Part shown: positions 60,828-62,303 of the stretch, one piece after another | Numbering within the stretch: position 1 is the stretch's first letter | Layout of the letters: every line of letters starts with the position of its first letter | Assembly: GCA_964456235.1 (NCBI GenBank) | Contig: CAYWDX010000002.1 | Coordinates: 78,061 to 142,060 of the forward strand | Reading direction: 5' to 3' | DNA from: an uncultured Candidatus Saccharibacteria bacterium | GTDB taxonomy: Bacteria; Patescibacteriota; Minisyncoccia; UBA6257; 2-01-FULL-56-20 | DNA: 64,000 nt | Made by a program: the position numbers and the translations under genes | The notes under the pieces: model-generated | Seen by the model: the letters and a program-made list of their open reading frames with translations, nothing else | Told to the model about the DNA's origin: nothing | The model's database searches: none

Positions 60828-61643
60828 TTACTCGACGGCGACATCGTAGGGACCGCTAAAGAACTGCCCATTGCCAGTTCCCGAAGAACCAAATTGACCC
60901 ATGTAAGTAGTGGTTGGACTAAATTCTTGCACCCGCTTATTGATGACGTCAGTGACGTACATACGCCCGTTGGCATCAATCGCAATAAAATTCGGGCTGC
61001 TAAACTGTCCATTCCCACTGCCCGAACTGCCAAATTGGGAGAGATAGCTCCCGCCAGAGTCAAATTTCTGCACGCGGTTATTGCCAGTGTCAACAACATA
61101 TATATTACCGGCGGAATCGATAGCAATGCCAACCGGACTGCTAAACTGTCCATTCCCACTGCCCGAACTGCCAAATTGGGAGAGATAATTCCCACTTGAA
61201 TCAAATTTCTCGACGCGACTGTTGCCAGAATCAACGACATAGATATTGCCGCTCGCATCAATCACGATCCCCTTAGGAGCCGTAAACTGCCCGCTGCCAC
61301 TCCCCGACGAACCGAATTGCGAAAGATAATTCCCATTGGAATCAAACTTTTCGACGCGGGCATTTCCAGTATCAACCACGTACACATTGCCGATCGTATC
61401 AGTTCTTATCCCAACGGGACTACCGGTGAATTGACCATTGCCAGAACCCGAGGAGCCAAACTGCAAAAGATAGTTCCCGTTGGAGTCAAACTTTTGGACG
61501 CGCCGGCGCTCCGAATCAAGCACATAGATATTGCCGCCAGTATCAACGGCGAGACCGCTCGCGGTACCAAATTGCCCGTTGCCGGAACCCGCCGAACCAA
61601 ATTTAGACTGGTACACTCCCGCATTATCAAACTCTTCAATGCG
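60828..61643 (-). repeat. Tandem ~141-bp coding repeats (NHL blades), including two identical 50-nt segments
   Basis: ctgctaaactgtccattcccactgcccgaactgccaaattgggagagata occurs at 60997 and again at 61138 (141-bp offset). Confidence 0.6.
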
Positions 61644-62303
61644 CGTGGTATCGCTCACCCACACGCACGGACCGCCATTCACGCAGCCAAAATCTTCAGC
61701 GATCAAATTAGATTGCGTTCCCTGCGTGTAGAGAAACGTCGTACTATTGCTCCCGTTCCCCGCCTGCGCCTGTTCTATCGGCGTGTATTTCTGGGATTGG
61801 AGGTTGGTAACAAATTGGTATTTCAATCCGTCGTCTGCGTAGGCATAAAACGAACCAGTCGATGATTGGTTGAGCGGATCAATCGGTAAAGCGGCGAACG
61901 GCGCCCCACCGGGGATTTGACTAAAGTTAAACGGCAGCCATCCCGTGCCATCCACATTGCGATAGTTTGAGGGTGATCCGCAGTAGTACGTTGTCCCTGA
62001 AGCAGGCGGGAGCAAGCCCAGATCGTTCCCGCAAGCACCTCGCTGCAGGTCAAGATTGGAATCGGGCAAAGAGATATAAATAATACTGGTTGAACCGGGG
62101 AGCGCGATACCATTTACCTGCGCAAGAGAAACCGCAGAATTCAGCGAGTTGATATCGGAAATACGATTCGCATCACGGCTCCGCAAAGCAAATTCCAGCG
62201 GATTGATAATCATAAAGACGACCAGGGCGATGAGACCGACAATAGCCGTAACGATTAAGAGCTCCACGAGCGTGAAACCTTTTTGAAGCTTAGGCGAGGC
62301 CAT
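60828..62303 (-). CDS. Type IV pilin-like protein (N-terminal prepilin signal/methylation motif) fused to a six-bladed NHL-repeat beta-propeller
   Basis: Start MASPKLQKGFTLVELLIVTAIVGLIALV (class III signal, KGFTLVE). The C-terminal half has 6 repeats of ~47 aa (GN.YV.D.GN.RV.KFDS.GNYLSQFGSSGSGNGQF). Its start overlaps the fba stop by 14 nt. Confidence 0.75.
   Translation of the reverse strand: MASPKLQKGFTLVELLIVTAIVGLIALVVFMIINPLEFALRSRDANRISDINSLNSAVSLAQVNGIALPGSTSIIYISLPDSNLDLQRGACGNDLGLLPPASGTTYYCGSPSNYRNVDGTGWLPFNFSQIPGGAPFAALPIDPLNQSSTGSFYAYADDGLKYQFVTNLQSQKYTPIEQAQAGNGSNSTTFLYTQGTQSNLIAEDFGCVNGGPCVWVSDTTRIEEFDNAGVYQSKFGSAGSGNGQFGTASGLAVDTGGNIYVLDSERRRVQKFDSNGNYLLQFGSSGSGNGQFTGSPVGIRTDTIGNVYVVDTGNARVEKFDSNGNYLSQFGSSGSGSGQFTAPKGIVIDASGNIYVVDSGNSRVEKFDSSGNYLSQFGSSGSGNGQFSSPVGIAIDSAGNIYVVDTGNNRVQKFDSGGSYLSQFGSSGSGNGQFSSPNFIAIDANGRMYVTDVINKRVQEFSPTTTYMGQFGSSGTGNGQFFSGPYDVAVE

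Follow-up and report, generated by a model that had tools for sequence, protein, structure and literature searches.

The 64,000-nucleotide stretch of contig CAYWDX010000002.1 analyzed here (the window) carries on its minus strand a complete coding sequence (60828..62303) of 491 codons plus stop, the product of which is, judged by its architecture, very probably a modular type IV pilin. Modular pilins were defined by Raynaud et al. 2021 (PMC8179133) as a pilin module onto which a functional domain has been grafted, and both parts of that definition, an IPR012902 pilin module and a C-terminal domain not specific to pilus biology, are found in this protein. A class III leader peptide is followed by a pilin module, which leads directly into a six-bladed NHL β-propeller; the fusion of a pilin-like N-terminus to NHL repeats, noticed in an initial annotation of this DNA, is real, and an identical protein (P0001) is present in the public protein collection. 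On the analogy with modular pilins (PMC8179133) and with the minor pilin PilX2 of TM7x (PMC11623550), the protein is most likely a pilus-displayed adhesin.

The protein begins MASPKLQKG|FTLVELLIVTAIVGLIALVV, where the first nine residues (62277..62303, minus strand) form a short basic leader ending in Gly-1 and are followed by Phe at +1 and Glu at +5 (MASPKLQKG|FTLVE), as expected of a class III signal. The mature N-terminus, FTLVELLIV..., is a hydrophobic α1N segment with Glu5 (residues 10-30; 62214..62276, minus strand). Pfam N_methyl (PF07963) matches residues 5-30 with 31.4 bits (cut-off 21.2) and TIGR02532 matches with 28.1 bits (cut-off 16.3), which bears out the prepilin-type N-terminus initially annotated. 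Phe10, Thr11, Leu12 and Glu14 are invariant across seven full-length homologues, and the leaders of homologues are likewise short, with ~4-12 residues ahead of the F/TL.E motif. A regular-expression scan of all six frames of the window for pilins of the form G-F/M-T/S-L-x-E found this gene only, its G-F-T-L-x-E motif being the sole one there. In the AlphaFold2 (AF2) model, residues 12-63 form a helix that is broken at N34-P35, in agreement with the ~50-residue α1 helix of type IV pilins, and a profile of the pilin module could be aligned with the α1 of solved filament pilins, including Geobacter PilA-N, Thermus PilA4 and S. sanguinis PilE1, over 58-77 positions with E-values of 3e-11 to 1e-8.

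The region between the class III signal and the propeller, earlier described as ~250 residues of linker, did not survive as such. Residues 10-205 (61689..62276, minus strand) align end to end with stand-alone pilins of 160-230 aminoacids from the candidate phyla radiation (CPR), with a conserved Cys91/Cys108 pair and DGTGW and LPxDPxN motifs. The seven full-length homologues share, through the whole of residues 10-205, an SRD..R..D stretch, YxSxPD, the Cys pair, DGTGWxP and LPxDPxN; a short junction, which reads GCxxGGPC in four of the seven, then leads into the propeller, and the stand-alone pilins stop where the propeller of the window protein starts. On these alignments, residues 10-205 are a conserved pilin module and not a linker, with the propeller starting directly after it. 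The AF2 model places 5-6 short strands past the helix, forming a small β head. This pilin module family has no Pfam model of its own, and the T2SSG profile (PF08334) is reached by only 2 of 23 pilin-module relatives, namely the most distant stand-alone ones.

The C-terminal module (residues 206-491; 60831..61688, minus strand), with a Cys207/Cys213 loop at the junction, matches Pfam NHL (PF01436) with 122.7 bits (cut-off 20). The full-length AF2 model (predicted local distance difference test, pLDDT, 91.4; predicted TM-score, pTM, 0.79) shows a six-bladed propeller of 24 strands, closed by a 3+1 'velcro': five blades are four-stranded, and the remaining one combines three N-terminal strands with strand 485-490 from the C-terminus. 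The six blades initially annotated could thus be recovered from the profile score, the six repeat units and the model alike. In a Foldseek search with the whole protein, which NHL domains dominated, the C-terminal 286 residues were superimposed on the NHL domain of Drosophila Thin (PDB identifier 6xg7) with an E-value of 1.8e-30, a target TM-score (TMt) of 0.87 and a root-mean-square deviation (rmsd) of 0.9 Å at 40% identity. The NHL domains of Thin, TRIM71, TRIM2/3 and Brat are the top matches, PknD is also found, and a sequence search of the PDB agrees with respect to TRIM71, Thin and PknD. The propeller accounts for ~30 kDa of a mature protein of 50.5 kDa. Other family assignments were rejected: the ScyF model (NF035926, scytonemin NHL PEP-CTERM) scores 211.9 bits against a cut-off of 350, and the C-terminus (...PYDVAVE) has no PEP-CTERM tail, so that only NHL repeats are shared, and the 'Cytotoxic', SUKH-3 and Ntox33 matches are repeat-driven or below cut-off. 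The PilY1/Neisseria_PilC family is absent among the Pfam matches at E-values up to 1, the propeller being of the NHL type.

Full-length homologues (P0046, P0047, P0066, P0084/HVM76754.1, P0119 and the 760-aminoacid P0016, which has extra blades) are 40-52% identical to the window protein, and five homologues of 472-490 aminoacids keep the same six blade boundaries. A search with residues 1-206 retrieved stand-alone pilins of 150-230 aminoacids from Patescibacteria. This single-sequence search was insensitive, giving 26 matches and missing known family members, and a profile search of a collection of 5.8 billion proteins likewise did not list the query members; because both searches missed known members, the numbers of NHL fusions given below are lower bounds. 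The named relatives of the pilin module all come from Patescibacteria/CPR, which fits the remark in the initial annotation that pilin-anchored propellers are typical of episymbiotic bacteria. The gene of P0126, a stand-alone homologue of the pilin module, immediately precedes those for a T2SSE ATPase and a T2SSF platform protein, which ties the pilin-module family to pilus machinery.

A motif scan for the pilin module, using one genome per GTDB species, identified 180 relatives, of which 80 were kept. These 80 are almost all labeled Paceibacterota, Parcubacteria or other Patescibacteria, and often several copies occur per genome; the window's own genome is not among the relatives, and the best match is 42% identical. 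Upon extension of their open reading frames (ORFs), most of the relatives measure 390-500 aminoacids, i.e., a pilin module plus a C-terminal module. Clustering and Pfam assign these C-terminal modules to Laminin_G_3/ConA-like lectins in 38 proteins (one with fn3 added), FGE-sulfatase-like domains in 8, Fib_succ_major in 6, CBM_4_9 and Gly_rich_2 in 2 each, a Kelch propeller in 1, Big_1 plus Kelch in 1, and NHL in 2, both of the latter from one metagenome-assembled genome. At least eight kinds of C-terminal module occur on this one scaffold. Three fragmentary NHL fusions (P0163, P0164 and P0168) came in addition from the profile search of 5.8 billion proteins, and NHL is a rare variant on this scaffold, with 2 of 78 genome loci and, as a lower bound, ~10 proteins overall. 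The pilin modules of NHL-bearing proteins are mostly mutual nearest neighbors. The exception is P0047, the scaffold of which is 65% identical to that of laminin G (LamG)-bearing pilins; its proximity to these indicates at least one module swap.

Further observations concern the relatives in their own genomes. Single Patescibacteria genomes hold five or six dispersed copies of the scaffold (JAJYMK010000003.1, loci L037, L041, L047, L050, L051 and L052; OY970216.1, loci L017, L018, L032, L048 and L062), and in JAJYMK010000003.1 the copies bear different modules (LamG, Fib_succ_major), forming a per-genome repertoire of modular pilins. Genes for a convergent paralogue, an integrase and a relaxase adjoin P0046, and unrelated genes surround P0084. 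In locus L083:10001-12921 (ENA ERZ27275054, k141_94482), two convergent pilin-NHL paralogues of 482 and 480 aminoacids neighbor a phage-type integrase, a Replic_Relax protein, a DUF87/TrwB-like ATPase and a D12 methyltransferase, and the two paralogues are possibly cargo, or neighbors, of a mobile element. P0066 (L082:9172-12957, Logan SRR12313479_30740), a pilin-NHL protein 51% identical to that of the window, derives from the run that also yielded the DNA of the window, is close to it in guanine-cytosine content (54.3% versus 53.9%), and may be a paralogue encoded by that very genome. A DsbA-like thioredoxin gene lies upstream of P0066, and genes for a glutaredoxin and a thioredoxin reductase follow downstream, redox neighbors that fit the conserved Cys pairs. 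At L087:8219-9829 (ENA ERZ25039512, contig_57801), a 536-aminoacid protein with a weak N_methyl match and a dCache_1 sensor domain is encoded just ahead of two stand-alone pilins and a T2SSE/T2SSF pair, and may be a pilin-anchored extracellular sensor. Two short contigs labeled 'Thermococci archaeon' (L068, CAZFRW010000102.1) and 'Spirochaetia bacterium' (L077, QYPD01000036.1) carry a Paceibacterota-type pilin scaffold, most likely through binning contamination rather than horizontal transfer. A 364-aminoacid scaffold relative from ENA (P0170) combines PF01381/PF13560 helix-turn-helix domains with N_methyl and may be a gene-call fusion.

For the window protein, we infer processing, pilus incorporation, a tip location and an adhesive role as follows. 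A prepilin peptidase would cut the short class III leader after Gly9, and the mature protein would then consist of a pilin module (the α1 helix and a small disulfide-bonded head) able to dock into a type IV pilus filament, with the six-bladed NHL propeller at its C-terminus as the effector module. Given its bulky propeller, the protein would most likely be a minor pilin, of low abundance, displayed on or close to the tip of the pilus, where the NHL module would bind a protein or glycan ligand on the surface of another cell, and the protein would serve a Patescibacteria-type organism as a host- or partner-recognition adhesin. It is one variant within a large Paceibacterota family that combines a common pilin scaffold with interchangeable binding modules. 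We hold this mechanism in its entirety, from processing through display on pili to ligand binding for cell-cell recognition, with moderate confidence.

Several points weigh against it. The window holds no prepilin peptidase or pilus assembly gene (PilB, PilC, PilD, PilM or PilT), for which the initial annotation had advised looking; the gene stands as an 'orphan' amid housekeeping genes, and homologues too are located outside pilus loci. The predicted pilin head, searched as the module alone with Foldseek against the PDB, has no significant match, none having an E-value below 1. No obvious Shine-Dalgarno motif lies upstream of the pilin ATG. NHL and related six-bladed propellers also serve as enzymes and sensors.

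In one alternative, the protein is surface-anchored and unpolymerized, the class III signal serving only for export, processing and α1N anchoring, or for building a short pseudopilus-like stalk, and the propeller acting as a receptor or binding protein. Such a protein would resemble the archaeal sugar-binding proteins with class III signals (the 'bindosome'), and the orphan gene without adjoining pilus genes in the window or in homologues, the 30 kDa bulk of the module and the resemblance of the propeller to the extracellular sensor domain of PknD are all consistent with it. However, the pilin module is complete and homologous to stand-alone pilins, one of them encoded beside T2SSE/T2SSF, and it conserves Glu5, a residue that matters for filament assembly. 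Moreover, the characterized modular pilins PilB and PilC are assembled into pili (PMC8179133), and co-assembly of PilX2 with PilA2 has been inferred from similar mutant phenotypes (PMC11623550). Taken together, we consider an anchored, unpolymerized protein unlikely.

If, instead, the propeller were an enzyme (lactonase/SGL-like, peptidyl-hydroxyglycine lyase-like or streptogramin lyase-like), it would be presented on the pilus to modify the envelope of a partner or another substrate. Weaker Pfam matches to SGL (45.1 bits) and, below cut-off, to Vgb_lyase and Phytase-like point in this direction, as does the presence of the PAL lyase 3fvz among the fold matches, and pilins fused to peptidases are listed in the catalog of Raynaud et al. 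(PMC8179133). The best matches, however, are the non-catalytic NHL domains of Thin, TRIM71, TRIM2/3 and Brat (rmsd 0.9-1.6 Å, 34-40% identity), the matches to enzyme families lie mostly below their curated cut-offs, and no catalytic motif was identified in the propeller, which together make an enzymatic role quite improbable.

A subunit of a competence-type pilus that binds nucleic acid is more doubtful still. In its favor, TRIM-NHL propellers bind RNA, natural competence occurs in some Patescibacteria, RNA-bound NHL domains (TRIM71 and Brat) are among the closest structural matches, and ComP_DUS is weakly matched by 3 of 23 pilin-module relatives. Against this, the propeller is acidic (isoelectric point, pI, 4.6; 24 Asp and Glu versus 17 Lys and Arg residues), as is the whole mature protein (pI 4.4), which argues against nucleic-acid binding, and the sister proteins on the same scaffold carry lectin or carbohydrate-binding modules (CBMs), which point to glycan or protein ligands. 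A role in nucleic-acid binding thus appears very unlikely, and a pilus-displayed adhesin remains the reading to be preferred.

The propeller is encoded by six blade-encoding repeat units (60859..61643; repeat family D1 and Tandem Repeats Finder, TRF) with start-to-start spacings of 141, 141, 141, 144 and 141 nt. The 141-bp period of the initial annotation holds apart from the one spacing of 144 nt, but the copies, there called near-identical, are only 61-78% identical to the reference copy, TRF giving 77% matches over 2.9 copies. The identical 50-nt stretch that had been noted in two blades is present: positions 60997..61046, at the start of blade unit 5, equal positions 61138..61187, at the start of blade unit 4. 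Both copies encode YLSQFGSSGSGNGQFSSP, and this is the sole exact repeat of at least 20 nt in the gene. The patch amounts to a run of 17 identical codons. In the blade pair 4/5, 23 of 31 codons for the same aminoacid are identical (0.74), compared to fractions of 0.23-0.58 in the other 14 pairs, whereas outside the 17-codon run the same pair falls to 6 of 14 (~0.43), i.e., to the background level. Of the recent duplication or gene conversion proposed earlier, a local conversion patch is therefore the part that stands: since codon identity returns to background outside the run, the patch is best read from the sequence as a recent, short gene-conversion tract, and not as a recent duplication of a whole unit. 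In the window protein, P0047 and P0119, blades resemble the others of their own protein slightly more than they do any blade in an orthologue, which hints at recurrent blade homogenization.

The assembly across the repeats could be compared with two Logan contigs from run SRR12313479, L081 (61158-64000) and L090 (57114-61026). Both are 100% identical to the window, and each ends exactly 30 nt into one copy of the 50-nt patch, L090 at 61026 in the first and L081 at 61158 in the second; such break points are expected if the Logan de Bruijn k is 31 and the repeat is truly two-copy with different outer flanks. That the repeat region is an assembly artifact, with a collapsed or expanded number of blades or a chimeric 50-nt patch, is hardly credible: the repeat does break a k = 31 assembly at both copies, and the 131 nt between the break points (61027-61157) are supported by the window's own assembly alone, but the independent contigs match perfectly on both sides and end as a true two-copy repeat would have them end, the frame is uninterrupted, the propeller of the high-confidence model is closed by exactly six blades, and the five homologues of 472-490 aminoacids have the same blade count.

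We tentatively suggest that Paceibacterota might employ a single conserved pilin scaffold to carry plug-in modules for partner recognition (lectins, CBMs, and Kelch and NHL propellers), with a repertoire of its own in each genome, somewhat as phages swap receptor-binding proteins. The NHL propeller might then represent a distinct host or ligand specificity, and gene conversion among blades might remodel the binding face, the latter being suggested because of the 50-nt patch and the greater likeness of blades within a protein than between orthologues. Were this the case, the host range of uncultured episymbionts could be read from their orphan modular pilins.

The gene lies in a tightly packed, same-strand array, pfkB-fba-pilin-rplY. 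Its ATG is at 62303 and its stop codon at 60830-60828. Upstream is the gene for a class II fructose-bisphosphate aldolase (fba; 62290..63204, minus strand), which matches PF01116 with 215.5 bits; as the match spans residues 3-301 of 304, the end of fba is normal. The fba stop codon, TAA, is at 62292-62290, so the pilin ATG lies inside fba, as the initial annotation had it, with an overlap of 14 nt (62290..62303, minus strand); an independent gene call on the Logan contig L081 gives the identical overlap. The longest mechanical ORF around the pilin gene is 60828-62450 (540 aminoacids), and translation from the in-frame ATG at 62450 would extend the leader to ~58 residues and the fba overlap to 161 nt; this start was discarded in favor of the ATG at 62303 because the leaders of homologues are short. 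Two plus-strand antisense ORFs (60672-61199 and 61317-61865) were also rejected, as shadows of the repeats. Downstream, ~45 nt past the pilin stop, lies the gene for ribosomal protein L25/Ctc (60114..60782, minus strand; Pfam), for which an exact look-up matched from the ATG at 60782 and not from the mechanical TTG start. Upstream of fba, past the window edge, L081 continues with gap, rpiB, rpe/tkt, tkt and pfkB. No promoter- or terminator-like sites could be found between fba, the pilin gene and the L25 gene, the counts being at background level, and the pilin gene is for this reason probably co-transcribed with these central-metabolism and ribosomal genes. The adjacency to fba, looked for in the homologues P0066, P0046 and P0084, is not conserved, and the overlap therefore says nothing special on function beyond the probable co-transcription.

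Besides the pilin gene, the window contains housekeeping genes only. The first half was read by eye and yields superoxide dismutase, a sigma factor, ParB, UvrA, UvrB and UvrC; the second half was searched with Pfam, which confirms SecA, Mur enzymes, PBP, MraW, LeuRS, MetRS and TIM. Two genes downstream of the pilin gene, a 506-aminoacid protein (58547-60067, minus strand) starts with a hydrophobic segment, continues with a long Gln-rich coiled-coil region and carries an SLT_2 lytic transglycosylase domain at its C-terminus, and may be a cell-wall-cutting enzyme directed at the cell's own wall or that of a partner. By eye, a 472-aminoacid ORF (3568-4986, minus strand) has an aspartate 1-decarboxylase (PanD)-like N-terminus followed by a further domain of ~350 aminoacids. 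Three adjacent genes at 6659-10353 (minus strand), also read by eye, encode a nitroreductase-like (348 aminoacids), a ThiF/E1-like (376 aminoacids) and an adenylate-forming, GH3-like or phenylacetate-CoA-ligase-like protein (499 aminoacids); they lie downstream of a histidine kinase and may form a small modification or biosynthetic cassette. At 22986-25788 (minus strand), likewise by eye, a fusion of a CHASE2-type membrane sensor with an adenylate/guanylate cyclase (571 aminoacids) adjoins a FecR-like protein with Ig-like repeats (360 aminoacids).

Host recognition by uncultivated Patescibacteria is poorly understood. To our knowledge, minor pilins on type IV pili that bear propellers or lectins are the sole adhesion system of Patescibacteria shown genetically so far, in one Saccharibacterium. 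The gene described here adds a clean, high-confidence NHL-propeller pilin from the larger, uncultured Paceibacterota, and the survey of its scaffold, with at least eight kinds of module, gives candidates for expression and ligand screening.

The modular-pilin strategy itself, and the combination of N_methyl with NHL, are already catalogued, and no new principle is involved. More than 1,200 modular pilins in 264 architectures have been catalogued, several of them from CPR phyla, with PF13385 and IPR011871 among the frequent modules, and one protein in Dataset S1 has the architecture IPR012902-IPR001258-IPR001258-IPR001258, i.e., N_methyl plus NHL (PMC8179133). A close comparison is with PilB and PilC of Streptococcus sanguinis (PMC8179133; PMC9934059), which share with the window protein a class III signal, a small pilin module, a very short junction to a bulky, generic binding domain at the C-terminus, a mature size of ~50 kDa and a proposed role as tip-exposed adhesins. 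PilB, with its vWA module, has been shown to be an adhesin, and modular pilins have been argued to be probably tip-exposed (PMC8179133). The differences lie in the grafted domain, which is vWA in PilB and a ConA-like lectin in PilC, whereas the NHL propeller has never been characterized on a pilin; in the pilin module, which here comes from a Paceibacterota-specific family; and in the position of the gene outside a pilus locus.

The propeller has parallels on other scaffolds. The six-bladed NHL fold is shared with the extracellular sensor of M. tuberculosis PknD and with Thin, TRIM71 and Brat (TM-scores of 0.73-0.88), at sequence E-values of 3e-32 to PknD and of 1e-60 or better to Thin and TRIM71, but it is borne by a kinase in PknD, by a RING/B-box scaffold in the TRIM-NHL proteins and by a pilin here; the ligand of TRIM-NHL is RNA, and the ligands of PknD and TRIM-NHL need not carry over to the pilin-NHL proteins. 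The PilY1/PilC tip adhesins (IPR008707) likewise place a β-propeller at the pilus tip for adhesion, and some PilY1 architectures contain NHL repeats (Dataset S2, PMC8179133); however, PilY1 is no pilin and docks via minor pilins, whereas here the propeller is covalently fused to the pilin. PilX2 of Nanosynbacter lyticus TM7x (Saccharibacteria) is also a Patescibacteria pilin with a C-terminal β-propeller, which by genetic evidence is required for efficient host binding and not for filament extrusion and has been proposed to be a lectin-like tip adhesin (PMC11623550). The propeller of PilX2 is seven-bladed and of the RCC1 type, its signal peptide is non-canonical and its gene lies in a pilin locus (PMC11623550); in the window protein, by contrast, an NHL propeller of six blades is combined with a canonical G|FTLVE signal, the gene is an orphan and the lineage is a different one. 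The gene is the NHL-bearing, canonical-signal counterpart in Paceibacterota, and will not surprise the specialist.

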